Shown here one piece after another: positions 31,400 through 60,752 of a stretch of DNA of 64,000 nucleotides. The stretch's first letter is position 1, and every line of letters starts with the position of its first letter. The position numbers and the translations under genes were made by a program. The notes under the pieces were generated by a model, which saw only the letters and a list, made by a program, of their open reading frames with translations, was not told the origin of the DNA and made no database searches. This DNA is from Eledone cirrhosa (taxonomy: Eukaryota): positions 96,596,001-96,660,000 of the forward strand of contig OZ024743.1 of assembly GCA_964016885.1 (NCBI GenBank), read 5' to 3'.

Positions 31400-31798
31400 T
31401 TTGGATTGGTAGAATTAGTAGAGCGTCAGACACCATGCTTTGCAGCATAGAATTACAGCCCTTTCTGGTCTGAGTTCAAATCCCACCAAGGTTATCTTTG
31501 CCCTTCATCCTTACGGGGTCAATAAAATAAAGAACCAGTAATGGGGTCAATTTAATTGATTTTCCTCCCTCAAATTGCTGGCCTTGTGCCTAAATCAGAA
31601 ATCCTTGTTTAAATTTCTTTGCAGCATAGAGTTACGGCCCTTTTCCGTCTGAGTTCAAATCCTGCTGAGGTTAGCTTTGCCTTTCATCCTTATGAGGTTG
31701 ATAAAATAAAGTACCAGTAATACACTGGGGTCAATTTAATCGACTTTCCCCTCTCCCAAAAAATTGCTGGCCTTGTGCCTACAGTAGAATTCATTATT
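31400..31798 (+). mobile_element. Two tandem SINE family A copies
   Basis: 31400-31602 (full) and 31615-31798 (5'-truncated), each with B-box GAGTTCAAATCC, core and CTGGCCTTGTGCC end. Confidence 0.85.
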
Positions 31799-35496: not shown

Positions 35497-35560
<64 letters not shown>

Positions 35561-35627
35561 AAGGTTTAGCAAATAATGAAAAAGTTTCAAAATAAATTTT
35601 AAAAAATTGACTTTACCTACTATAGTT

Positions 35628-35711
35628 ACCTTTACCGATCGGTTTCGAATCCCAAAAATAAAACGGAGACCATACGGCCTTCGTTGCAAAGAAAGATTCT
35701 CGTCAGAAGGT
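35628..35711 (-). ncRNA. Type I hammerhead ribozyme, intact core (unit 1)
   Basis: ACCTT-CTGACGA-GAATC-(43 nt with an inner 9/10-bp helix)-GATTC-GAAA-CCGATCGG-TA-AAGGT. All core nucleotides and three stems are present. Confidence 0.9.
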
Positions 35712-36110
35712 TCTTTTCATTCAAAGAATATAAAATTCCTGAATTTAAATCACAAACTAGCGCTATCAAAACTGTTCCTGGGATGAGAGTGGATGATGTA
35801 GAAACAGGTTTATCAAGGGCCGAAGCAAAGATAGAGGCAAAAGGAGGTAGGTCAAACTAGCCACAGCTATTGCTAGCAGCAGTCAGAACGACCAAATTTG
35901 TTTTCAACGTTAGTGGAGGTAGTAGTAATAGGATATACGTTCCTTCACGCACAAGGCACCAAGGTACGCATGTATTGTCCAACCAAATGCCAGTGTGGTT
36001 CAATGGCGGGTTAATAAATTAACGAGCCAGAACAAATATAAACAAGGTTTAGCAAATAATGAAAAAGTTTCAAAATAAATTTTAAAAAATTGACTTTACC
36101 TACTATAGTT

Positions 36111-36194
36111 ACCTTTACCGATCGGTTTCGAATCCCAAAAATAAAACGGAGACCATACAGCCTTCGTTGCAAAGAAAGATTCTCGTCAGAAGGT
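36111..36194 (-). ncRNA. Type I hammerhead ribozyme, intact core (unit 2)
   Basis: Same as 35628-35711, with one substitution in the stem II extension. Confidence 0.9.
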
Positions 36195-36725
36195 TCTTTT
36201 CATTCAAAGAATATAAAATTCCTGAATTTAAATCACAAACTAGCGCTATCAAAACTGTTCCTGGGATGAGAGTGGATGATGTAGAAACAGGTTTATCAAG
36301 GGCCGAAGCAAAGATAGAGGCAAAAGGAGGTAGGTCAAACTAGCCACAGCTATTGCTAGCAGCAGTCAGAACGACCAAATTTGTTCTCAACGTTAGTGGA
36401 GGTAGTAGTAATAGGATATACGTTCCTTCACGCACAAGGCGCCAAGGTACGCATGTATTGTCCAACCAAATGCCAGTGTGGTTCAATGGCGGGTTAATAA
36501 ATTAACGAGCCAGAACAAATATAAACAAGGTTTAGCAAATAATGAAAAAGTTTCAAAATAAATTTTAAAAAATTGACTTTACCTACTATAGTTACCTTTA
36601 CCGATCCTTGTTTATATTTGTTCTGGGTCGTTAATTTATTAACCCGCCATTGAACCACACTGGCATTTGGTTGGACAATACATGCGTACCTTGGCGCCTT
36701 GTGCGTGAAGGAACGTATATCCTAT

Positions 36726-37333: not shown

Positions 37334-38605
37334 TTACATTTTAAATTTATATTTAAATGTTGAGTTCAATCTATGTCTGCAGCAACTGAAGAGATTGCTT
37401 CTTACATTTAGGGAATTTTTGCTTTTTAATATAAAGAATATTTCATCTATACAAAGATCACAATTTTCTGAAGAGGAGTTAAAAGGAGTAGCTTTTGAAA
37501 TAATATTCCAAAGTAACGAATATTTAACGTTCTTTAATTTGAGGTCCCATAATAAGCTAGATAGAGAAGTTGATGTTTTGTTTAAATGCGTAAAAGAGCT
37601 TTTATGGTTATTAAAACGAGATTTAAAATCTGTGAAAGTAGATCCTACATAATTAAATGAATTTAAATTAGTTATTACATTACAATTATATACTATATTT
37701 TTAGCTAAGCAATTGTTATTTAACGGACAATTAGATTTATTTCTACAGTTACATTTATCAAATTGGATATTGCTGGGGTTATTAGTGGTATTTTGGCTAG
37801 GTTTTAAATTTCTATTATTAATTCTATTAATATTCTGCGCTAAATTTTTGGTGGATGAATAAGTTAATTTTATAGTATGTCTATTAAAAATTGAGTAATA
37901 TCTATGTGTTCTCGGGAAGCATTTGTCAAGAGCTTTAAAGAATAGTTTAGCAATAGGAGTTTTAATATTTAATGAGAAAGGAAGAGCAAACCATAATATA
38001 TTCCTAGTTCTATTTCTTTTTTTGTTTTTCGAATTATTGTAAGGTTTTCTATTATAGTTGTTAAAATTGTTAGGATTATGGTTATTTGTTATATTATTAT
38101 TATCAATGTATTTAATTTTATTTCTATATCCAGCTCTACCTAACGCTTCATTGTAATAATGGGCTTTATCATCAAATATATTCTTATTAGCTGAAATTCT
38201 AGAAATGCGTTGCTGTACAGAATTCACTATAGTATTTTTAACGGATCTGGGGTGATTAGAGTTAAAATTAAAGTAGTTTAAGTTCTCGTTTAGTTTGTGA
38301 CAAGGATAATGAAGACATGTGTTAAGGTTTAATGTTACATCTAGAAAATTAACTATTTTATGGTTATTCTCTATTTCTACTTTTAGATTAAGGTAATTAA
38401 AAAATTGTATAATTTCTTTTCTTTTCCTATTTAATTCACAGTTATTATTTTCGATAAGTAAAAGCATGTCATCACGATATAAACCTCCGGTCATCTCAGG
38501 TATTTTTCTATGTAGAGAATTATTTATAAAGAGGCCCACAAGATCCGTTACCTGAGCGGAATCGGATGATGCCATAGTGATATCGAAATTATTATTTCTA
38601 TCTGC
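37334..38605 (-). pseudogene. 5'-truncated Penelope-like element ORF (RT C-terminal half + GIY-YIG endonuclease)
   Basis: FDITMASSDSAQVTDLVG, LYRDD, VNFLDVTL, SNHP, CNCRNKSNCPLNNNC, IVY..YVG..FKSRFNNH, CDLCIDE, CRH. Uninterrupted for about 420 codons. The first ~55 aa of the tracked ORF is read-through of adjacent repeats. Confidence 0.9.
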
Positions 38606-38607
38606 TC

Positions 38608-38638
<31 letters not shown>

Positions 38639-38858
38639 ATAGATCAGATAGGGTATGGTAAAATACCAGGTGGACCATAACTCACCAGAGTACTCGATAC
38701 TTGGGGTAGTAGAGTGGGTAATATGAAAAGATTCAGGACCCGACAGCTGAGCCAGCGGGGTTCTGAATCTTTTCATATATATATATATATATGTGTGTGT
38801 GTATATATATATATATATATCATCATCATCACTGTTTTACGTCCGTTCTTCCACGCTA

Positions 38859-44440: not shown

Positions 44441-46115
44441 TGTGTGTGTATATATATATATACACACACACACAGATATATATATATATCATTTAGGTTT
44501 GTAGTCACAATTATGTTGTCACAATTATGAGCAACACATCGTTACCAGCGTATTCTGGCAATGCTAAATTGTGGTTTGCCCAGCTAGATTCGTATTTTGC
44601 TGCCAACGGAGTACAGGCAGCACAGTAAAAACTACATGTGCTAATCAGTGGAATTTGCACTTCGCTGGCAACTACAGCAAAGGACATCCTCGCAGATCCT
44701 CCACAAAGCACCTCCCACGAGTCTCTGAAGACAGAGGTACTGCGTAGGGGGACAGTAGGTCGTCTGAGAGTAGATTCCGATCCTTATTAGAAGATGAAAA
44801 TCTGGGGGACAGAACTCCTTCAGAGTTTTTACGGCGTATCCGAGAACTCAGGGATGCTGTGCCTGAAGACAGTTCCTTTGTAAAGAAGTTATTCTTCTCC
44901 CAATTGCCAACCAATGTGCAAACCTTATTGGCGAATACGGTTGACACCAGTTCTATAGAACAAATTGCTGCCTTTGCGGACAGAATTATGGAATTTTGTA
45001 GGGAACCTACCTCGGCTGATTCAGTCATTGCCTCTACTATTCTTAAAGAATAGCCTTCCTCACCTAGTGAGGAAGCCATGTTGAGAGCTATTGACGGGTT
45101 AACACGTCAAGTAGCTAAACTGTGTCGTGATCGAGCGCCACCTAGGTGGTATTCACAAAGTCAGTCTTTTTCTTCTCATCGACGTACCAACTCCCCCGCC
45201 AACAGTTCTTCTTTGTGTTGGTACGATGCCCGTTTCCATGATAAGGCACAACATTATATTAAGCCCTGCTCTTTTGGGGCATCGGAAAACTAAGTTTGGA
45301 GAGTCTGAGCATGGCAGACCTCTCCCTTAACATTTCACCTTATCGTGCTTTCTTCATCAGAGACCGAGTCTCAAACAAGTCATGGTCGACACAGGATCAA
45401 GTTGCTGTATTTGGCCCTTACAGTTCAGCTCTACCAAGCCAACTTTTTCCGGCATTTCTTTGTATACAGTGAACCAGTCTCCTATAAAAACCTATGGACA
45501 GATATCTTTATCATTGGACCTAGCTTTTCGTCGAGATTTTAAATGGATTTTCTTCATTGCCGACCTACCTCATCCTATTCTCGGCGCGGATTTCTTACAC
45601 CACTATTCACTTTTGATAGATGTCAGGAAACAGAAACTTGTGGATAGTACCACATCCTTATCTACGCCTACTCGTAAATCTACTGCTGCTTCTGTCAGTC
45701 CGTTGTTTTTTTGTGGCTGCCGCTGGAAACCAGTTTAATGCACTCCTTACTTCGTTTCCCGAGTTAATGGATATTTCATTTAAACTTACCCAGGCAGTCC
45801 ATTTGGCTCAACACTTCATTACAACGACTGGTCCACCTGTTTTCTCTCATCCATGAAGGTTGGCTCTGGATAGACTAAAAAAAGCCCGAGACGAGTTTGA
45901 GCACATGCTCCAGCTCGGTCTTATACGACCTTCCACCAGCCAATGGCCATATCCACTGCATTTGGCTCAAAAGGGTGAGACGGATTTTAGACCGGTAGGA
46001 GATCACCACACCTGATCGTTATCATTTACCCAACTTACAGGATTTTTCATCTGTTCTGCATGGATGCACAATATTTTTCAAAATAGATCTAGTACGTGTA
46101 TACCACCAGATACCC

Positions 46116-46985
46116 ATGAATCCAGAAGATATACCAAAGACAGCCATGACCACCTCCTTTGGTTCATTTGAATTCCTGTCCATGCCTTTTAGCTTGCGGA
46201 ATGCCTCTAGTACGTTCCAACGTTTTATCGATGAAGTCATGCGTGGATTGGATTTTGTGTTTGCTTATGTGGATGACCTCCTAATAGCCAGTGACTCAGC
46301 TGAACATCATCATCAACATCTATCTCAGTTATTTCAACATCTTCAATCTTACCAGGTCAGAATCAACCCAGCTAAATGTGTGTTTGGTACAGATTCACTG
46401 GAATTTCTAGGACATCTTATAGATTCAGAAGGCATTCGACCTTTGCCATCTAAGGTGGAAGCGATTCAGCGAATCGCACCTCCCACCTCATTGAGGCAGT
46501 TACATCATTTCTTAGGATTAATCAACTTTTATCGTCGTTTCATCCCTAACTGTGTAGACAAGTTGTTTCCCTTGACACAGTTTTTAAAGGCGGCGAAAAA
46601 GAAAGATGCTCCCATTTTACTTTCTGCCGATGATTTGCAATCTTTAGAATCCGTCAAGTCCAAAATAGTTAAAGTTTCCTTCCTGGCTCATCCTTTTGCG
46701 AATGCGAGGCTATCCTTAACTGTCGATGCGTCCGACCATGCTGTCGGAGCAGTCTTGCAACATACAATCAACCACCAGTTTCAACTACTGGCGTTTTTCT
46801 CACGCCAACTAAAACTAGCAGAGCAACTTTACAGTACTTTTGAGAGAGAGCTTTTAGCAGTTTATCTTGCTGTGAGACACTTCCACCATCTTCTTGAAGG
46901 TCGGGAGTTCACGGTATTCACAGACCATAAATCACTCACATTCGCTCCTCAATCTCGGTTCGACAGATACTCTCCGAGGGCATAG
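46116..46985 (+). pseudogene. Gypsy pol: RT/RNase H fragment
   Basis: [50 protein letters not shown]. Confidence 0.92.
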
Positions 46986-47333
46986 AGGCATTTGGATTTC
47001 ATCAACCAGTACACCAGTGACATTCGTCATATAGCTGGAGCTGCCAATGTACCCGCGGACGCATTATCTCGACTTTCTGTGTGTGCCCTTGCGTCTCCTG
47101 AACATATGGATTTGGTTGCCATTGCGACTGAACAACCTTCTTTGGATTCTCTGGATACTTCTTCTACCCAATTTTCCTGCTGTAAATTTTAATATTTACC
47201 TCTTCCGTCTGCTGAAGGGAAAATTCTTTGCGACATTTCTACTGGCTCACCCAGACCACTTGTTCCAGTTTGTCATCAGCGTACCATTTTTGATGCACTT
47301 CATTCCTTTTCGCATCCCGGCATAGCTGCCACG

Positions 47334-48209
47334 GTGAAGCTCATCACAGCCCGATTCTTCTGGCCTAACATGCGTCATTTAATCAGCGGTTGGGCACGTT
47401 CTCGTTTGCAGTGTCAGCGCTCTAAGGTTCATCGGCATGTTCGCGCTCCTCTTGGTAAATTCAGCTCGCCGGACGCTCGTTTCCATCACATTCACATGGA
47501 TATTGTTGGTCCTTGGGCCGTGAGTCATGGGTTCACATATATATTGACCTGTATCGATCGTTTCTCTCGGTGGCCTGAAACCATACCCCTAGTGGACATA
47601 ACAGCCGAGTCCGTTGCCCATGCTTTCATTTCCAATTGGGTTGCTCGCTTTGGTGTTCCTTCTAAAATAACCACAGATTGGGGACGCCAGTTCGAGGCTT
47701 CCTTATTTTGTGAAATATCACGACTTTTGGGTGCTCATCACATTCATATGACCAGCTATCACCTAGCCTTCAACGGAATGGTGGAGAGGTTTCACAGACA
47801 GTTGAAAGCTGCACTCCGCGCTACTCCTGATCCGCATCGTTGGACCAAATTTTTGCCAATCGTGCTTCTTGGTTGTCGTTCTGCTGTTAAGACAGATTTG
47901 GGTTTCTCCTCAGCTGAACTTCTTTACAGTACCACGTTGACTCTTCCCAGTCAAATGCTAGCACCGGTTGATTCATCGCTTCTTGATCCAACATATGTCA
48001 CCAGGATTCGTTTTTACTTTTTGGATCTTCCACTAATGAACCCTCGTGACCAGTCTATTTCTTCTGCTGTTCCATCGGACATCTCTACGTGGACACACAT
48101 TTTTATACGGAATAATTTCGTCAAGAGACTGCTTACGTCACCCTATAATGGACCTTTTCGTGTGCTTTTGCACACACCCAAACATATCACAGTGGCGGTC
48201 AATGGTTGA
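47334..48209 (+). pseudogene. Gypsy pol: integrase fragment
   Basis: HMDIVGP, IDRFSRW, ITTDWGRQF, NGMVERFHR (DDE) and GPF motif. Confidence 0.92.
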
Positions 48210-49994: not shown

Positions 49995-50181
49995 GATAAT
50001 AATTGTTTCTACTTTTGGCACAAGGCCAGCAATTATCACAGTGCATTACTGGTACTTTATTTTATCGACCCCATAAGGATGAAAGGCAAAGTTAACCTCG
50101 GCGAGATTTGAACTCAAAACGTAAAGGGCCATAACTTTATGCTGTAAAGCATGGTGTCTGACACTCTACCGATACTGCCGA
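49995..50181 (-). mobile_element. SINE family A
   Basis: A/B boxes, core and tail as in the other copies. Confidence 0.88.
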
Positions 50182-50949
50182 AGACATTATAGGCAATAGA
50201 ACAATTACCTCAACTTCAAACAGACTTTATATGTACTTTGCTTTCATGTCATTCATCTCTGTGACTTTGTTCCCCTCCTCTTCTATTCACAATCAGTATC
50301 CCTTACAATCTAAGCTAATCTGTTTTGAATAACCAGTGTCTAATTATCGTTTACCAGGTACAAGCTAATAACAATTCAAATGCCTGCTTTCTAGTGATTT
50401 ATTGTCTAGTATCCACAACAGCAAGCCTATTATTATGGAACTGGAATGACGTAATATTTAGACACACTTCTAGATGTGTTGTTACTTGTCTAGTTTTACA
50501 TCGTATTACATCTGTGATTCTCTGGGAGTCAGTCTTTCATGTAACCTCAATTTATGGTATTATTAATTAAAGCAAAACTAAATAGAATTAGTTAAACAGG
50601 CTTAAAATACTACTACTACTGCTACTACTACTACTACTACTACTAATAATAATAATAATAATAATGATTTCTTTATTGGCCACAAGGGCTGACATCAAGA
50701 AAAACATCACAGACGGAACAGGACGGTACGATGTGGGTTTTGTGCGTGTAAATATTTTTATTATATATATAAGAAAAGAAAAAAGACATAAAACATATAT
50801 ATATATAAACAATAAAATGAAAATTGAAACAATGAAAAATTCCCCAATAGGGGGGAAACCTCCGAGGGTTACTCGTGGCGAAAACCACACAAAAGACCAC
50901 GGCCACCCTGACTACCAGGGCAAGCGCCCTCTCTCAATTTTTCCATCTC

Positions 50950-53900
50950 TCAAACTACAGACGTATATTTAGAGTTCACTCGGACCATTCTCGCTACATT
51001 CACCCACCTTTCAACAAACTTACTAGAAAGCAGCACTTGCCTCCCCACCCTGATTTTCCTCTTCAAGTGAAACTTGAAAAAATTAATCAGGGATTCGCCG
51101 AAGAGGAAAGTGTTTGTCTTTAACCCTTTTAACCTTGTCCACCACACAATCTCTTTCGCCATGGCCACCAGGCAGATGAAAACCGCCTGCCCTTCCTCCT
51201 CAAAGGAAGACGGCGAGACCATCTGCACAATGGACTCAGTCGACAACCGGATCAGTCCCACACATGACAGCAACTGTTCGACATAGCTCCACAAGTCAGC
51301 AATGCTCGGGCACTGAACGAGTGCGTGCACAACGGTTTCGTCGCTATGCGCGCATCTCGGACAGGCTCGGCTGACGGCACTTCCGTGCCTGTAGAGCTTA
51401 TCTCGAACCGGCAGCGCTCCCCGGTAGCACTGCCAGGCCAGGGATTTTTGGAAGTTATCCATAGGCCCCGGGCTGAAAGTTCTCCGGAAGAGAGCAAGCA
51501 GCTGATCTTCTTCGACGCCCAGGATCTCTCCGAGAACGGCGTCGCTCTTCCCCTCCACTAGTCCTCTATAGAGCGCCAAGGTGGATGTTCCACCGATACT
51601 GGTGCCCAACTGGGAGAGGGCAGTGAGCGCCTGGAGATATTCTAGTTTCCATGCGCTATCCCTCGGTCTTTTTCTGACCCAGGACTGCAGCTCCATCAAG
51701 GAGACGAGCTGTGGGAAAATGTGCCTGGCGAACGGCGACCACACCCATTCACCATCAAGGAAGCACCAGAGATGTCGCATACTCAGCGCATGTTTGCGCA
51801 TCATCAGCCATGGCATGCCCAGTCCTCCACGCAACGGGTGTTGACAGCAGATGGATCATCTGACCATGGGAGCGCGTCCCTTCCATAAAAAGCGGAAGAG
51901 GAGGCGCTCCATTTTGGTGGGAGTTGGGCCGGGGCAGGGACGACGGTGAGGCAGGGATGACGGATGCGATGTACGCATTCGCCACCTCCGCCCGGCCTTT
52001 CAGGGACAGCTTATTCTCAGCCCATTTCTGGGTGAGGGAGGCCACCCTGCTCGTCATCTCTTTCTAGTTATTCTCCATCTGGAGGTCCGGTCCGAACCAG
52101 ACCCTGAGCAATTTAACCGGTCCGTCCGTCCAACGCCCCACGACGCTGTCGGACGGCATGGACTTTCCTCTCCAGGTGCCTAGCTGCAAGCCCACCGACT
52201 TTTCCTGGTTTATCTTTGCTCCTGTCACTGCTTCGTATTCCTTGAGAGCGGTGCCGAGCATCTGGACGTGTCTGATGCTTGACACCACCACGGTGACGTC
52301 ATCAGCGTAAGCCGACTCGGATCTCCCGCATCCTAGTTCGCGTGGGACGCCCCTCATCGCCCCCAGTTTGTGCAGTAACGGCTCGAGAGCCAATACGTAC
52401 AAGAGGGACGAGAGGGGACAACCATGTCGGACTGAGCGCATAATGCTGAACGGCTGCGACAGGTGACCGTTCACCCTCACAACTGAGCAGATGTCGCTAT
52501 ACATTGCTGCGATCCAACGCCTGAAAACGGGCCCAAAACCGGCTGCCTCGAGGACCGCCGCCAGGTACCGATGGTCGACCCTATCGAATGCTTTGGATTG
52601 ATCCAAGTTGATCAGGGCCCCACCCTTGCCAGTTTCCTTAACCACCCTCTCTATGATGTATCGCATGAGGTGGAGGTTGTCGTGTATGGATCTGTCCGGA
52701 ATGGCGCTTGTCTGCGCCTCTCCCACCAGACCCTTGACGACAAGCGCCAACCTCGTTGCTAACACCTTGGCCAAAATCTTGAACTCTGCGTTTAGCAGGG
52801 TAATGGGCCTGAAATTATCAATAACATCCCCCTTGTTCGGGTCTTTTCTCAGCAGCGCCACTGCTCCCCGGCTCACAAAACTGGGAATGCTCCCATTCTG
52901 CTGCCAGTTGCAGTAGACGTCTGCCAAGAGGTCACCGAACAAGTCTGGCATAAATGCATAAAGCTCGTAGGGCAGACCATCTAAACCTGGCGATTTACCT
53001 CTTGTGCAGTTAGCCATCGCTTCCCGTATTTCACCGGCTGTTATTGGCTTTTCGCAACACTGTGCTGCGGTCGTCGAGAGCCGAGGCTTCCGTCGAGGTA
53101 TGCACTGAAGTCCATGCCCCGATCCGGGCCACCGCTGCTCCCGAACAGTTCAGCAAAGTGCTGCTGAAAAGCTTCACACATCCGCTCGGGTTCGAGCATC
53201 ACGCACCCGTTTTGGTCAGACAAAGACCGAATTGTGGCTTTATTGCCACGTCGCGCCTCTGCCACCCGGGCCCATTGGACGGCTTTTGTTCCCTCGTGTT
53301 TCAGAGCACGTGCTCTAGCTCTGACAATGCAGCCTTCGTGTTTTGCGTTGAAGAATTGGTCGAGTGCCAATCTCGCCGCAAGCACGTCGGTTGCGATGCC
53401 TGTCCTAAACGCCTCTTCTAGCTTTCTGACTAGCTCTCCCTCTACTCTATTTTCCTCTATCACTACTCCTTTGCTAAATCTAATCGACTCTACTTTAATT
53501 GCCCTTTTCAGGGCGAACCACCACCTGTTGTTGACGACCGCTCCCGTCAGTGCCCGCTTAACTTATACGCTAATCCGGTCTCTGTAGGCCTTGCGCGCCG
53601 GGAAAGACGCGTTCAGCTTCCAGTAACCAGGTCCTTGTCTATGAAGTCTGTCTATGTCAATCTCACAGATCACAAATTTGTGGTTTGTGTAGTCGACTAT
53701 TTTAAATTGTGGACAACTTATACTAGCCTTATCTAGTTCCCTGCAGAATACCCTATCTAGATACGATCTGGATGACCCGATGCGGTTTGTCCATGACCAC
53801 ATTGGCACATTCGGGTGATCCAGTCGATACCTGTCAGACAGTTCAAAACGTCTGAGCAGGTTGGTGAGGCTCTTGCACCCTCCTCTCCTATCCACTAGCC

Positions 53901-54359
53901 CCACACGATCCCAGCGTGCATACAAGATACCGTTCCAGTCGCCCACTAACACTAAAGAGCGGGACGTTCCAAGAAAGGTCTCTAGACGTCTGAAGAAATC
54001 TGGCCGTCCTGCCCCTGTTGGGGCGTAGACAGCTACTAGCCTGAAAGCATTGCCTTCGCTGCCGGTCACGTCCAGCACCACTGACTTACCTTCTGGGTCC
54101 AGGAAGATGGCCCGTATCGCGAGATCCAAGCCTCTCCGAAAACGGATGGCAACCCCTCCCCCGATCCTGGATGGCTGGGAGATGCGTATACATCGTAGCC
54201 GCCGAAGATCGGTGCGAAGGCCCGTGCCTCGGAGATTCTGGTTTCACTGATGGCCACCACATCTATGTTTAGTGACCTGAGGTCATTGAGCAGGTGACCC
54301 TGCTTCCAAGATGACCCCAGGCCATGTGCATTTATACTGCCTATTCTGAGTACAGCCAT
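50950..54359 (-). pseudogene. Tx1 ORF2 (APE-RT-zinc finger), broken into at least 6 frames
   Basis: Track ORFs 54066-54395, 53563-54129, 53041-53463, 52064-53017, 51755-52057 and 50950-51834 are collinear. ATG at 54359. Confidence 0.92.
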
Positions 54360-54391
54360 GTTGGATGAGAAACGGGGAAAATGAGAAAGGG

Positions 54392-56439
54392 TCACTTACC
54401 TTGTTCGTGTGGTGAAGGGACAGTAGAACCGTCCCTTTCGCTGGTCATGGGTGTTTCCAAGAGGATGTCAGTGTATATCCTCTTGGTAACCGTCCCTCTG
54501 AAGTCTCCAACTGCGTTGGGGAATTTTTGTTTTAAAGGTTTGTATTGTTCTATTGAGATTTCGATGATGCTTATGTTTGTCGTGAGAGTTCTTGGTGTTG
54601 GTGGGGTGTAGTAGTTTTTTTCCGTGTTGTCTGTGTGCAGCTTTATATATTTTATGAGTTCTTTTTTTGCTATGTTTATGGCTGTGTACTTTTTGGGGGG
54701 AGGGGTGATTTTGTTGCCGTTTCTTCTTGATGCTGTTTGGTGTGTGTGTCTTGTTGTGTTTGCGTTGTTGGTGTTTGTGGTGGTGTTGCTGCAAGTTTCC
54801 TTGCTGCCTTTACCCCTCTTTGTATGCCTTCGCTTTTGGAGGGTGAATCTAAGGGTTTTTTTGTTTTTTGTTTTTTGTGGCAGACTGTTTGCCACGTCAC
54901 TCCTGCCTCAAACTCCATGTCGGATTCTGTGGCATCTGGGAGGGGTATGTGCTCCACGGCTGTTGGTGGTGGTAGTGGAGCCCTCTTCGGCAATGTTGTT
55001 GCTGGTGTAGCTATTTCAAATGTAGCTATTGGTGTTGCCACTACTGATGATGCTGCTTTAGTTATCCGTGGCCTTGGTACGGGTGCTACGGACGTTGCCC
55101 TCCTACTCACCGTGGAAGGGGCTTCTTCGTTTGTTGCCTGTCCTGCTCTTGATAGCAGCGAACCAGGTATTGGAAGGAGAGGGGCCCTCTTCGGTGTCTT
55201 CTGCGGGCAAAAGGCCCTGAGGTGACCTTTCGACCCACAGAGATAACATTTTGGCCGTCTTCCTTCTACACTTATAGGGAGTTGGAGTCCTTCCTCAAAG
55301 TCTATGATATCGGGGATAGCCTCGATACATTCCTGGTCAGTTTGTATAAGCATTTGCATGCCTATACCTGACCAGTTCTCTCTCCCTATTTTTTCTACCT
55401 GCAGCATGGTCGCCCTGTTCTCAATTCCAGCAAGGACAGACACGGCCAGCCAAGGTATGGGCACGTTGGGTGGGACCTGGGTCACTTTGACCCTCACAAT
55501 TTTCTGCCCGCAGTAGGAGGGCACCAAGATTAACTCCTCACTCTTTAGGGTTTCCAAAGAGTGAGACTTTGCTTCCTGGGGGGTGGCGAAAAGTACATCT
55601 ACTGTGGCGTACTTTCTGCCACGGGTGATGTGGGTTTTGCGTGCCCAGACGCACCCCAAGGCCTTTTGGATTTGAGCCTCCATGGCTCTCTCCACTCGAT
55701 GTGAGATTTTGCTTACGGTGCGGTAAGTCACGGTTCGTAGCTGTTGGTCCTTGAAAAAATCGGGTGGAGGTTTCAAGGAAACTCTATTTGCGCTTCTTGT
55801 CACCATGGCCCTTGCGACTGCCATCTCCTCCTCTGTGACTAACACTGTCTCCATATTTCGGGCGACACCTGCAAAAGAAGTGGTCCCCTTTTCAGCAGCA
55901 CCACTATTGCTGCCGCTACTGGTCTTACTGGTGGTGCTGAGGTCGCTATTACAGGTATCGGTGTCATTGTTGTTCTTTTCGCTGGTACAGTTGTTGGTGT
56001 TGTTTTCGTTGATACTGTTGCTGCTGTTACTGTTATTGTGGCTGTTGTTATTATTGTTGTTTTTGTTGATACTGTTCCTACTATTATTGTTGTTATTGTC
56101 ATTGTTATTGTCGTTCTCGACCTTACCGCTGTTATTTTTGTTATTGTCGTTCTCGACCTTACCGCTGTTATTTTTGTTATTGTCGTTCTCGACTTTACCG
56201 CTGTTATTTTTGGTATTGTTGTTGGTGATGTTGTTGGTGTTATTGTTGGTGTTGTTTGTGTTAGAAATATTTCGTAATTTTAAATCTGTAACAATCTTTT
56301 TTTCCTTTGTAATATTTTCGTTTATATTTACCTTCTCTGGACCGCTGTCTTGTTGACATGCTGATAAAGTCTCACTCTCTCTGTGTTGTCTGACAGCGCG
56401 CTCTCTCTTTTTTGTGTTATCCATGTTGAAACTTTTCAA
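54392..56439 (-). CDS. Tx1 ORF1 (Asn-rich N-terminus, CCHC knuckle), one probable frameshift near 54870
   Basis: 587-aa ORF with CYLCGSKGHLRAFC and NNKNNSGKVEND x3. It continues in ORF 54392-54895 to EQGK*. Confidence 0.82.
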
Positions 56440-56640
56440 AAAATATTTTTACACAAATACGAATACGACACCCCGTAAAGGGGTGCCGTATTATTTACTA
56501 GTGAACCCCTGTATTAGGTGGATCACTTCTTCTAAACTTTTATCAAATTTAAAACTTGAATAAAAGGTTTAGAACGGTTGAAAAAGAGGTAAAACGTTGA
56601 AAAAGACTGGAGGCGATAAGAAGCGCGGCTTCACCAACCA

Positions 56641-56847
56641 ATAATAATAATAATAATAATAATTGTTTCTACTTTTTGGCACAAGGCCAGCAATTACACA
56701 GTGCATTACTGGTACTTTATTTTATCGACCCCATAAGGATGAAAGGCAAAGTCAACCTCAGCGAGATTTGAACTCAGATCGAAAAGGGACGTAACTACGC
56801 TGGAAAGCATGTCTGACCCTTTACTGTTACTGCCAATTCACCGCCCT

Positions 56848-56848
<1 letters not shown>
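56641..56848 (-). mobile_element. SINE family A sandwiched between two Tx1 elements
   Basis: A/B boxes, core and (ATT)n tail, with (AAT)n on both sides. Confidence 0.88.
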
Positions 56849-56889
<41 letters not shown>

Positions 56890-59451
56890 TTCTTTATTGG
56901 ACACAAGGGCCAGAACATAAAGGACACTACAAACACAAGGACAATGGGGATTTACATGAAATTGAGTAAAAAAGATATAACAAAAACAATACAATTATAA
57001 CAATAAATTTTCCCCAATAGAGAGGAGTACCACCCAAGGGTGACTCAGAAATTCCACTAATCCTAAACCACCCTACACTCCAAGAACCCCCTATGAGCCA
57101 CCCCTTTCCTCTCTGAACCATCCAACCTACAGGTACATAGTTAGAGTAGGCCCATTCACATGGGACATCCTTGCTACGTCCACCCACCTTTTAACCAATG
57201 GAATGCAAAAAAGGCTTCTAGACACCTGAAGATATCTGGCTGTCCAGCCCCAGCTGGAGCATAGATGGCCGCCAGTCTAAAGGCACCACCTTCACTATTG
57301 TTCACATCCAAGTCCAGGCCGTTCCTAAATAGCACTGCCACCTCCCCTCCCATTCCAGGCCAACTAAAAAATGCAAAGATCTCATAGTCATTAAAAATAG
57401 GGACTGTGCATATGTGTTAGAAATCCTGGTCTTGCTGATGGCAGTCACATCCATATCTAGTGACCTGAGGTTGTTCAGTAAGCAAACTTGCTTCCAGGAG
57501 GAGCCCAGGCCACAAACATTTTTGCATCATCCTACATTTATGACAGCTATGTTGATTGGTTTGTTAAGAGAGAAAAAAGAGGAGGGCTACTTACCCTCTG
57601 GGTGCTATTTGTTGTAGTTGCTGTTGAGGTCCTATTGTTGAGAGCAAAAAGCACTTAAGTTTCCAATTTTTCTGCAAAATTGACAGTGGGCCTTTTGTCC
57701 TGCATAATGGCCCTTAGCTGAAGGCCAACTAGAAGGCAAATTTGTCTGAGATCTTTTCAACCTTCTCTGGTTTGATCTTGGAGAAATATCTCTAGACTGA
57801 TGCCAGGCCAGTTCTTCCTTCAGTTTCTCTTTACACCGTGGAGCATTTCACTTCCCTCTTGGACTATGCAAGCTAGGTTCCACCAGATGTCTATTTCTAG
57901 CAGGACCCTAGCAATGCAGATATTTTGTGTCTTCTTCTCATGTGAGAAGGAAACAAATTAAATTTGTCCTTTTTGCAGAGGACCACAAAGTACTTTTTTG
58001 CAAGGGCCTCGCTAATGAAAAGCACTGATATGCTCCCAAACTGATTGGACCTTGACATGTGCTGGATGTCCAGCATTAAACCATTTAGAGCTGGGATGGT
58101 TAGGCCACCTCTGTCTTTCTGGACTTAAAGCCAATACATCTATAAATCAGAGTTTCTCTTCTCTGTTGCTGCCAACACCACAGGCGGACATTTATGGTGG
58201 TCCAGGTTTTACCAACTTTTGCTGCCTTATCCAAACATTCCACTCTCTTAGTGATGTCCATGTGCAAAAATTCTACAGTTGTTGCAGCTGTTGCTGTGAA
58301 CGTGCATTTGTTACCGTTGTTGTTGCTGTTGTTATTGTTGTCATTGTTTCTGCTGCTGCTGCTGTTATAGTTGTTTGTTTTCTTTGCTGCTGTTGCTGCT
58401 GTTATTATTGTTGTTGCTGTTGTTATTGTTGTTGTCATTGTTTCTGCTGTTGCTGCTGTTTTTATTGTTGTTGCTGTTGTTATTGTTATTTTTGTTGTTG
58501 TTGTTGTCTCTGTTGCTGCTATTGTTGTTGTTGCTGTTTTTGTTGTTGTCTCTGTTGCTGCTGTTGTTGTTGTCTCTGTTGTTGCTGTTTTTGTTGTTGT
58601 CTCTGTTGTTGCTGTTGTTGTTGTCTCTGTTGCTGCTGTTGTTGTTGTCTCTGTTGTTGCTGTTGTTGTTGTTGATGTTGTTGTCTCTGTTGCTTCTGTT
58701 GTTGTCTCTGTTGTTGCTGTTTTTGTTGTTGTCTCTGTTGCTGCTGTTGTTGTCTCTGTTGTTGCTGTTTTTGTTATTGTCTCTGTTGCTGCTGTTGTTG
58801 TTGTTGATGTTGTTGCTGTTTTTGTTGTTGTCTCTGTTGCTCCTGTTGTTGTTGCTATTTTTGTTGTTGTCTCAGTTGTTGCTGTTGTTGTTGTTGAAGT
58901 TGTTGCTGTTTTTGTTGTTGTCTTTGCTGTTGCTGTTGTTGATGTTGTTGCTGTTTTTGTTGTTGTCTCTGTTGCTGTTGTTGATGTTGTTGCTGTTTTT
59001 GTTGTTGTCTCTGTTGCTGCTGTTGTTGTTGTCTCTGTTGCTGCTGTTGTTGTTGTCTCTGTTGCTGCTGTTTTTGTTGTTGTTGTTGTTGTCTCTGTTG
59101 CTGCTGTTCTTGTTGTTGTCTCTGTTGCTGCTGTTGTTGTTGTCTCTGTTGTTGCTGTTGTTGTTGTTGTCTCTGCTGTTGCTGCTGTTGTTGTTGTCTC
59201 CGTTGTTGCTGCTGTTGTTGTTGTCTCTGTTGCTGCTGTTTTTGTTGTCTCTGTTGCTGCTGTGTGGTTGTTGTTGTCTCTGTTGCTGCTGTTGTTGTTG
59301 TCTCTGTTGCTGCTGCTTTTGTTGTCTCTGTTGTTGCTGTTGTTGTTGTTGTCTCTGTTGCTGCTGTTGTTGTTGTCTCTGTTGTTGCTGTTGTTGTTGT
59401 CTCTGTTGTTGCTGTTGTTGTTGTCTCTATTGTTGTTGTCTCTGTTGTTAC

Positions 59452-59493
<42 letters not shown>

Positions 59494-60570
59494 CTCTGTT
59501 GCTGCTGATGTTGTTGTCTTTGTTGTTGCTGTTGTTGTTGTCTCTGTTGTTGCTGTTTTTGTTGTTGTCTCTGTTGCTGCTGTTGTTGTTGTCTCTGTTG
59601 CTGCTGTTGTTGTTGTCTCTGTTGCTGCTGTTGTTGTTGTCTCTGTTGCTGCTGTTGTTGTTGTCTCTGTTGTTGCTGTTTTTGTTGTCTCTGTTGTTGT
59701 TGTCTCTGTTGTTGCTGTTTTTGTTGTTGTCTCTGTTGCTGCTGTTGTTGTTGTCTCTGTTGCTGCTGTTGTTGTTGTCTCTGTTGTTGTTGTTGTCTCT
59801 GTTGTTGTTGTTGTCTCTGTTGTTGCTGTTGTTGTTGTCTCTGTTGTTGTTGTTGTCTCTGTTGTTGTTGTCTCTGTTGCTGCTGTTGTTGTTGTCCCTG
59901 TTGCTGCTGTTGTTGTTGTTGTCTCTGTTGTTGCTGTTTTTGTTGTTGTCTCTGTTGTTGTTGCTGATGTTGTTGTCTCTGTTGTTGTTGTCTCTGATGT
60001 TGCTGTTTTTGTTGTTGTCTCTGTTGCTGCTGTTGTTGTTGTCTCTGTTGCTGCTGCTGCTGTTGTTGTCTCTGTTGTTGCTGTTGTTGTTGTTGTCTCT
60101 GCTGTTGTTGTTGTTGTCTCTGTTGTTGCTGCTGTTGTTGTTGTCTCTGTTGTTGCTGTTGTTGTTGTTGTCTCTGTTGTTGCTGTTTTTGTTGTCTCTG
60201 TTGTTGCTGTTGTTGTTGTTGTCTCTGTTGTTGCTGTTTTTGTTGTTGTCTCTGTTGCTGATGTTGTTGTTGTCTCTGTTGCTGCTGCTGTTGTTGTCTC
60301 TGTAGTACAGGTAGTGGTAACTGGTGGGATTGGTGACCTTTCAGTCATTGTAACGTGGCAGCTACTTGAAAGCAGAAGCGCATGTCTCCTCCATTTTCTT
60401 TTTAATGTTTGCAGGCATGAACAGTAAAAGTATTATGGGGTTGTAAGTGAGAGGGCAATGTATGATGTCTAACAGTTTGTAACAAAATTATAACAATAAA
60501 TCTTATGTAAACCTGTGAAAGTTAATAAAACTTACAGTTTGATGTGCACACACATCTTGATAGACTCAAC
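56849..60570 (-). mobile_element. Second, older Tx1-like LINE with most of ORF2 deleted
   Basis: 3' end similar to 50645-50900. APE start at 57230-57550 parallels 54050-54360. ORF1 remnants (ITKRVE, GKTWTTINV) parallel ISHRVE and GRKYATVDV. The 5' boundary is approximate. Confidence 0.72.
58278..60303. repeat. 2-kb (GTT/GCT/GTCTCT) triplet-based satellite
   Basis: Directly visible. The minus strand reads TETTT(T/A)n. Confidence 0.97.
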
Positions 60571-60577
60571 AGCAAAG

Positions 60578-60752
60578 ATAATAATGGTTTCTTATATAGG
60601 CACAAGGCCAGCAATTTGAAGGAAGGGGAAAATTGATTAAATTGACCCCAATGCATTACTGGTACTTTATTTTATCAACCCTGTAACGATGAAAGGCAAA
60701 GCTAACCTTTGCAGGATTTGAACTCAGACCATAAAGGACCATAACTCTCTAT
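60578..60752 (-). mobile_element. SINE family A (5'-truncated)
   Basis: B-box, core and tail present. Confidence 0.85.

Follow-up and report, generated by a model that had tools for sequence, protein, structure and literature searches.

The window examined in this study, namely 64,000 nucleotides of the octopod Eledone cirrhosa (assembly GCA_964016885.1, contig OZ024743.1, positions 96,596,001 to 96,660,000 of the forward strand), contains a chain of four minus-strand retroelements, in which copies of a short interspersed element (SINE) alternate with long interspersed elements (LINEs) of the Tx1 clade. In the order of the minus strand, SINE-A, Tx1-2, SINE-B and Tx1-1 were confirmed to abut via ATT linkers. 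An initial annotation of this DNA had described such a stack and proposed that an (ATT)n-targeting Tx1 family drives the SINE. All four elements are present in the sequence, as are the junctions and the 3' ends quoted there, three of each; the junctions 60578 and 56849 stand as given, and the third is actually 56640/56639, one base off the claimed 56641.

A chain of retroelements joined by ATT linkers

SINE-A (60586..60752) is truncated at its 5' end and belongs to the long, older form of this genome's dominant SINE; its closest relatives among 99 collected near-full-length SINE copies are 85-88% identical, and its 5' flank shows a terminal ATT and microhomology. The first linker (60578..60585) is merely ATTATTAT, unlike the long ATT runs at the other junctions. 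Tx1-2 (56890..60577) is an old and decayed Tx1 copy, in which an AAC-rich minisatellite of about 2 kb occupies the region of the first open reading frame (ORF1; 58318-60303) and codons ~130-1115 of ORF2 are deleted, leaving an endonuclease stub (57207-57520) and the 3' untranslated region (UTR) with the remnant of a hairpin (56897..56913; CTTGT loop, one pair broken). The (ATT)13AT linker that follows (56849..56889) consists of the Tx1-2 tail and the 5' duplication of SINE-B. SINE-B itself (56664..56848) represents the short form of that SINE at full length, with nearest copies at 97% identity; A-box-like (56835-56824) and B-box-like (56775-56764) motifs were noted by eye against the consensus, and the element ends in a Tx1-like terminal segment (56691-56664).

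Behind an (ATT)8 linker (56640..56663), Tx1-1 (50666..56639) is a full-length element of 5974 nt with 95.8% identity to another full copy. It has an ORF1 frame of 582 codons (54679..56424) with a CCHC zinc knuckle at 55248-55207 and an ORF2 (50953..54359) for endonuclease, reverse transcriptase and zf-RVT, whose reading frame is disrupted by frameshifts at three places (near 54150, 53100 and 51930) and by in-frame stops. Its 3' hairpin (50678..50691) has a CUUGU loop with predicted pair probabilities of ~0.8 and is followed by an A-rich spacer. The tail together with the rest of the host microsatellite (50608..50665) comprises (ATT)7 at 50645-50665 and then approximately (AGT)12. In the whole window, 11 runs of (ATT)≥3 were found on both strands, of which three reach at least seven units; because all three lie within the chain, the chain is not a matter of chance.

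The Tx1 families and their target

The elements show the architecture of LINEs of the L1 group and Tx1 clade, namely ORF1 with a CCHC knuckle and ORF2 with an APE endonuclease, a reverse transcriptase and a C-terminal zinc motif. The zf-CCHC of Tx1-1 scored under the curated Pfam cut-off (E 0.0046), but the motif is visible nonetheless. ORF2 is intact at three loci of sister families (L101, L104 and L105; L numbers denote loci collected in this study), and the solved structure closest to such intact ORF2s is human LINE-1 ORF2p (E 2.5e-57, compared with 3e-22 for R2). In a tree, the Tx1 rows were split from those of CR1, RTE and Dong with a support of 99/99; they side with U2-flanked elements (L345, L348 and L353), albeit with a weak support of 83 and no labelled Tx1 or L1 references in the tree. 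Among named proteins, the one closest to the Tx1 ORF2 is from Argonauta hians (71% identity), and it nests within the family clade of the present genome. At least four young Tx1 families have in common the ATT target and a 3' hairpin with the CUUGU loop, so that the ATT-targeting Tx1 proposed initially is borne out as a clade of several families and not as a single one.

Outside octopods, one metagenome scan gave nothing and a second gave only relatives of 25-45% identity; the hairpin motif was seen in none of the 30 metagenome loci inspected (of 80), and a single unrelated ATT run was noted. Five metagenome contigs (L345, L348, L353, L337 and L346) hold distant relatives that are flanked by or carry U2 small nuclear RNA sequence, and flanks of this kind are a signature described for Keno-type Tx1. 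A ribozyme or known RNA family at the Tx1 5' ends was also considered, and only repeat-driven microRNA matches were obtained, at six loci.

Counts given as genome-wide refer to the 3.0-Gb E. cirrhosa assembly, and background rates and copy depths to a systematic 600-kb sample of it. The Tx1 clade was shown to target (ATT)n. Indeed, when Tx1-1 5' ends were searched genome-wide by exact pattern match, ATTATT preceded 95 of 98 ends, while it is found at 0.09% of positions in the background; a Tx1 element is regarded as target-specific when more than 20% of its flanks carry one type of target (PMC4494074), a level that 95/98 exceeds. ATT runs also preceded 30 of 30 Tx1-1 5' ends in a survey by similarity (the best 30 of 40 scored loci), and the 5' flank ended in ATT in all 45 full-length copies of four families, one of them with a one-base variant; the 45 copies overlap with the 30 loci. 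Most of 15 5' ends related to Tx1-2 were also located behind ATT-rich runs. A lack of (ATT)n enrichment in Tx1 5' flanks, which the initial annotation had named as one outcome that would refute it, did not occur.

ATT runs, furthermore, precede young copies that are truncated (L090, L109, L308, L330, L332 and L333), and therefore ATT is the target and not part of the element; ATT as the element's own 5' end was rejected as the sole explanation. The 5' junctions of full-length copies are always in phase with ATT, and upstream AUU is possibly co-transcribed in such copies. We also noticed that the (ATT)n of Tx1 tails often gives way to (AGT)n, (GTT)n or (CTT)n, as at 50608-50665 of the window and at L063, L105, L267, L280, L283, L290 and L315, and that such compound microsatellites sit at hubs of Tx1 insertion.

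Stacking and re-use of junctions

Stacking recurs elsewhere in the genome. Behind 30 Tx1-1 tails, we found nine Tx1, three SINEs, nine Dong-type elements in the opposite orientation and nine unclassified sequences; behind 30 tails of a second Tx1 family were 11 Tx1 (nine of them in one array), two SINEs, one Dong-type element, one Tx1 in the opposite orientation and 15 unclassified sequences. The sequences upstream of 30 Tx1-1 starts were nine SINE tails, seven Tx1 tails, eight Dong-type elements and one inverted SINE, with none in the remaining five. When ATT arrays in the 600-kb sample were examined by motif match, 26 of 81 were located directly after the end of a SINE (21) or a Tx1 (5), and the other recurrent ends in front of such arrays belonged to a CR1 family and one unidentified repeat. 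An unidentified repeat end recurs before short ATT runs followed by TA repeats (L168, L178, L181 and L189).

Earlier junctions are re-used, and serial re-targeting is well supported. At locus L089, the target-site duplication (TSD) of a Tx1, 18-21 bp in length, copies the head of a pre-existing SINE. In two of eight adjacent SINE pairs (L048 and L213), one unique TSD is present three times in the order TSD-SINE-TSD-SINE-TSD, and the SINEs are 94% identical. These loci support the part of the initial claim by which earlier insertions are targeted again. The head-to-tail chaining claimed initially holds for the stacking of Tx1 and SINE but not as growth in one direction, in that 5' junctions are used as well and Dong-type elements take part in the opposite orientation.

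Chains might instead arise without serial insertion, either as read-through co-transcripts inserted as a unit or by tandem duplication of DNA. Indeed, at one place ten or more full-length Tx1 copies were noted in tandem, spaced ~5.8 kb apart (G000:C1:423367722-423420000; L271-L279 and L336); with nine identical (ATT)5 linkers and copies 98.6-99.9% identical, this nine-junction array looks like a DNA-level duplication. A unique TSD of a SINE split by a later Tx1 was, moreover, not found apart from one ATT-rich case, and the phase of the 5' junctions is a hint that sequence upstream was co-transcribed. On the other hand, the four elements in the window differ strongly in age, the neighbours of Tx1-1 vary among SINEs, several Tx1 families, Dong-type elements and none, and both the Tx1 TSD copying an existing SINE head and the triplicated TSDs, which flank non-identical SINEs, speak against such an origin. 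A non-serial origin of the chains is accordingly regarded as improbable.

As to the ages, the best relatives of Tx1-2 are 72-81% identical over the 3' UTR, whereas the start of Tx1-1 in the window differs by 2.4% from the family majority (family median, 0.9%). Another Tx1 family has copies more than 99% identical, and further Tx1 copies are 79-85% identical to young references. SINEs in the sample differ from their majority sequence by 1.6-12% in the short form and 12-13% in the long form. Judging from these divergences, the periods of SINE and Tx1 activity overlap. Within the chain, Tx1-2 likely came first or close to SINE-A, which sits at the 5' flank of Tx1-2, and SINE-B and Tx1-1 came later, in the 3' tail. 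As Tx1-2 was probably early, the chain would have grown at both ends and not strictly from left to right.

The same ATT/AAT arrays also contain at least two Dong/R4-type families with a single ORF, in the orientation opposite to Tx1 (L099, L100 and L103; e.g., L103:540-4920), one of which keeps an intact frame of 1216 codons. Two LINE clades thus share one microsatellite, strand by strand. Compared with Dong of the R4 clade, which is known to target TAA (PMC3812793), the same microsatellite is used here, and the Dong-type elements differ from Tx1 in their strand orientation and in that their only ORF lacks an APE domain at the N terminus.

The dominant SINE and its insertion footprint

The dominant SINE is a short non-coding interspersed repeat with TSDs. 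It accounts for at least 2.45% of the 600-kb sample with a copy depth of 107, the highest of all repeats (RTE reaches 52 and the SINE ranking second 20), so that its description as the most abundant SINE is upheld in the sample. Extrapolation from 22 intact copies per 600 kb gives ~110,000 genome-wide, and the ratio of SINE to Tx1-1 by read depth is roughly 1000:1 in a reduced-representation library. No tRNA match was detected in the SINE with ARAGORN, and for SINE-B nothing above the gathering score was obtained with Rfam; a weak Rfam match to U2 (E 0.78) was discarded. This SINE may resemble members of the Deu/Nin-domain superfamily, which have a central Deu domain. Further copies in the window lie at 1977-2162, 7189-7292, 15303-15489, 31402-31789 and 50004-50179; those at 1977 and 15303 have TSDs of ~17 bp starting with ATTA, and 31402-31789 is a SINE-SINE tandem.

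TSDs were examined in the 22 intact copies with matches of at least 11 bp counted as long. Long TSDs were present in 18 of the 22, with a median of 15 bp, and shuffled flank pairs gave matches of this length in 8.7%. In a non-circular test using the upstream flank alone, ATTAT was found in 19/22 copies against a background of 4.9%, while it occurred in 4/22 at 60 nt further upstream and the antisense motif in 1/22. ATT arrays of at least three units hold 4/22 SINEs (background, 0.26%). The SINE target is hence of the ATT type, as supposed, but an array is not required and a single ATTAT is enough. Across all loci, 53 SINE TSDs could be anchored; 52-53 of them open with ATTAT, which is partly forced by the anchoring, and C or T immediately precedes ATTAT in 42. 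A large part of what looks like the SINE tail is, therefore, TSD sequence.

Tx1 TSDs can be read where they include letters other than ATT: 18 bp at L327, ~13-15 bp at L329, 18-21 bp at L089 and ~21 bp at L215, all starting with ATTAT (GTTAT in L329). SINE and readable Tx1 insertions thus have a common footprint, a long duplication that starts with ATTAT directly at the 3' end of the element.

Comparison of the 3' ends

The 3' ends of 14 LINEs, including those of ten non-Tx1 families collected from the 600-kb sample and from an endonuclease-family search (20 of 150 scored matches), were compared with the three SINEs of the window by end-anchored scores, with p values derived from genomic 32-mers. 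Three Tx1 ends scored 27-30 (p ~0.001) and a fourth 17-21; the best other LINE, a CR1 end, scored 20-23, and the ATT-tailed CR1 scored 9-12. Among the 14 LINE ends, the terminal ~25 nt of the SINE are closest to Tx1, as expected of a homologous 3' end; the SINE end fits Tx1 better than it fits the ten other families, and a better match to another clade, which would have spoken against the initial proposal, was absent.

In three young families, the Tx1 ends are predicted to form a hairpin of 3-4 bp that closes the CUUGU loop, with pair probabilities of 0.64-0.92; two G-C pairs are replaced by A-U in one lineage, with 90% of the cells paired. The loop recurs in the SINE end, where the stem is shorter by one pair, and this hairpin is predicted when folding is confined to the last 40 nt (p 0.97). 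The shared stem-loop that had been anticipated from folding is, therefore, predicted in Tx1 but not in the full-length SINE RNA, and a hairpin common to Tx1 and SINE is plausible. At locus L120, a 3' UTR of the Tx1 type has a terminus of the SINE type, and the changeover falls within the loop motif common to both; this single case is possibly a chimera.

Both CR1 and RTE are the usual partners of SINEs (PMC3747384), and a young (ATT)n-ended CR1 or the abundant RTE might then drive the SINE via microhomology between tail and target. The CR1 copies are near-identical, with an intact ORF2 of 957 codons and ATT tails, and RTE makes up 6.2% of the 600-kb sample. The ends of CR1 and RTE are, however, unlike that of the SINE (scores 9-14, p 0.1-0.45), and neither has long TSDs starting with ATTAT, by which this alternative is largely refuted: matches of at least 11 bp were found in 4/17 truncated copies of the ATT-tailed CR1, all in simple or tandem repeats and one starting with ATTAT, and in 2/14 RTE ends, both in TA repeats. 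SINE TSDs, in addition, start with A and not with the T described for RTE partners (PMC6007223), and in this genome RTE is already paired with another SINE that shares its tail. No CR1 or RTE thus had both the tail and the footprint in common with the SINE; the two were ruled out as its partner on these grounds, and the chance that either drives it is considered to be very remote. Dong was also rejected as a partner, since no match to the SINE is seen in its (AAT)n ends.

The tail-sharing SINE of RTE, a second SINE family with an RTE tail of ~209 nt at its 3' end, is an ordinary pair and serves as an internal control; its copies (L185, L310 and L165:756-903) are often found beside TA repeats. 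At locus L058, a 3' piece of RTE is directly followed by a SINE, possibly as one template-switch insertion. The very young CR1-type family (L217-L221 and L237-L266), with a 957-codon ORF2 and many identical 3' ends, has a tail of (ATT)n and a hairpin of another kind, and clear TSDs are lacking.

Other features of the window

Beyond the chain, an RTE-type LINE with a (GAT)n tail, whose family is the one that accounts for 6.2% of the sample, lies at 19216-22626 on the minus strand, and pol fragments of a long-terminal-repeat retrotransposon (reverse transcriptase, RNase H and integrase) lie at 45999-48209 on the plus strand. A frame of 500 codons at 37334-38836 (minus strand) gave no Pfam match, but its look-alikes carry HTH_animal, RVT_1 and GIY-YIG, and the frame probably belongs to a Penelope-like element. 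We also found a 483-bp tandem duplication with 99% identity (35553-36606), minisatellites of 48 bp and 26 bp (9622-9995 and 12971-13364) and a TA-rich array of 1.5 kb (2-1538).

Discussion

Based on the tail, the footprint and the target, it is fairly probable that the Tx1 clade copies the dominant SINE in trans. The initial proposal, an (ATT)n-targeting Tx1 as the driver of the SINE, is in this sense favored by the tail match, the TSD footprint and the abundance of the SINE, but a single family and the targeting of arrays are not retained.

Several observations nonetheless weigh against Tx1 as the driver, or against the targeting and hairpin recognition attributed to it. The segment common to Tx1 and the SINE is just ~25 nt with ~70% identity, and the score of one young Tx1 family (17-21) is no better than that of an unrelated CR1 end (20-23). 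The covariation in the hairpin represents one evolutionary event in five distinct rows and is reached by 12 of 500 shuffles; folding z-scores of the whole tails are weak (-1.7 to +0.2); the probability of the SINE hairpin falls to 0.03 or less when folding is extended to 60 nt or to the entire RNA; and a search for a "missing link" SINE with the complete Tx1 hairpin gave no exact match. Young Tx1 copies sit in ATT arrays, yet just 4/22 SINEs do, and ATTAT was found within 26 nt at only 20 of 62 apparent 5' truncation points of Tx1, although many of these points belong to copies that are old, interrupted or have internal deletions and whose ends are uncertain. Some full-length Tx1 copies, furthermore, permit a TSD of merely 3-7 bp (L301 and L315). 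Such short TSDs would fit 5' annealing of a co-transcribed upstream repeat, by analogy with R2, for which annealing of this kind has been postulated (PMC3774820). Pairing between tail and target, finally, could yield TSDs starting with ATTAT with any LINE (PMC6007223). The segments shared by SINE/LINE pairs in bivalves are longer than the one seen here, with 35-61 bp at 72-95% identity reported (PMC11481361).

A LINE of another lineage, either unsampled or extinct, with long TSDs and an AUU end might, alternatively, have mobilized the SINE; the 25-nt likeness would then be a relic or convergence, and Tx1 would co-occur with the SINE via ATT pairing only. The short shared segment, the hairpin that is not predicted in the SINE RNA and the different array lengths used by SINE and Tx1 are all consistent with this alternative, and our survey covered the ten non-Tx1 families described above. 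Among Tx1, ATT-tailed CR1 and RTE junctions, nevertheless, only those of Tx1 have long TSDs starting with ATTAT, and the ends that recur in front of the sampled ATT arrays are, besides those of SINE and Tx1 (26/81), confined to CR1 and one unidentified repeat. Such a LINE is thus considered unlikely.

With Tx1 as the driver, the chain would represent four retroelement copies inserted at one ATT microsatellite through repeated target-primed reverse transcription by the Tx1 clade. Tx1 ORF2 would nick the strand opposite ATTAT, the freed 3' end would pair with AUU at the end of the RNA and prime reverse transcription, and a second nick ~15-20 bp downstream would give rise to the TSD. Tx1 RNA may be chosen via the CUUGU hairpin and the A-rich spacer, and the SINE may use its ~25-nt copy of that end. 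Each insertion would leave ATTAT at both junctions, where slippage may lengthen it, and both junctions would become new targets. The in-phase 5' junctions of full-length copies would probably reflect annealing of co-transcribed upstream AUU to the target. Stringent, hairpin-based recognition of RNA by Tx1, as suggested by the predicted folds, is a tentative proposal that falls a little short of an even chance.

Tx1 LINEs with two ORFs and specificity for a microsatellite have precedents in Kibi, Koshi and the crocodilian microsatellite Tx1, whose targets are (TC)n, (TTC)n, (TTCC)n and (TTTC)n (PMC4494074; PMC3812793) instead of (ATT)n; in the present elements, moreover, the repeat adjoining the 3' end is ATT, as in the target, the hairpin is conserved and families are stacked head to tail. 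The closest parallel for the SINE is the crocodilian pair of SINEU and Tx1-Mar, in which mobilization by Tx1 was inferred from a common target and overlapping ages as here and, in some families, the target preference of the SINE is likewise weaker than that of the LINE (PMC4494074). SINEU has a poly(A) end, and its link to Tx1 was argued from target, age and shared 5' heads (PMC4494074); in our case, the likeness of the 3' ends and the common TSD footprint are added, and the SINE is the repeat with the highest copy number in the 600-kb sample.

Among 58 SINE/LINE pairs with shared 3' ends, just three involve the L1 clade, all from plants or algae (PMC3472496). The maize pair (ZmSINE2/3 and LINE1-1_ZM) and the Chlamydomonas pair (SINEX-3 and L1-1_CR) also combine an L1-group LINE, a 3' hairpin with compensatory changes and a tail-sharing SINE; these pairs share ~45-80 nt, and the algal one ends in poly(A) (PMC3472496; PMC3747384), whereas the present system is from an animal, target-specific and ATT-ended, with ~25 nt shared and a weak SINE hairpin. 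A 3' stem-loop with a conserved loop in front of a short repeat is also known in the stringent L2 elements ZfL2-1/ZfL2-2 and UnaL2, which belong to another clade and in which recognition of the loop by ORF2 was demonstrated by assay (PMC4176376), while the hairpin described here is predicted from sequence and folding. In the open literature searched, to the extent that the papers were available, we found neither an ATT-targeting Tx1 nor a Tx1 partner for octopus SINEs; Repbase reports, the 1994 octopus SINE paper, the 2004 survey of Tx1 targets and supplements were outside that search.

SINEs constitute ~40% of the transposable-element content in octopus, with tRNA-Core and tRNA-Deu as the main ones (PMC8967140). 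Our results provide a candidate LINE partner for octopus SINEs, for which no partner is named in the literature searched, together with its footprint, and add (ATT)n to the list of Tx1 targets. Ends of retroposons, furthermore, seed microsatellites that are then re-used, with 26 of 81 sampled ATT arrays directly behind a SINE or Tx1 end. A stringent ancestor has been proposed for the L1 group (PMC3472496). That an animal element of this group recognizes its RNA stringently by a hairpin, uses AUU in place of poly(A), targets ATT repeats, drives the expansion of the dominant octopod SINE, continually seeds its own target together with that SINE and shares its hubs with Dong-type elements is, as a whole, a possibility to which we give slightly less than even confidence; if true, stringent recognition as the ancestral state of the L1 group would become testable in an animal element, for which intact young Tx1 copies (L101, L104 and L105) are at hand.

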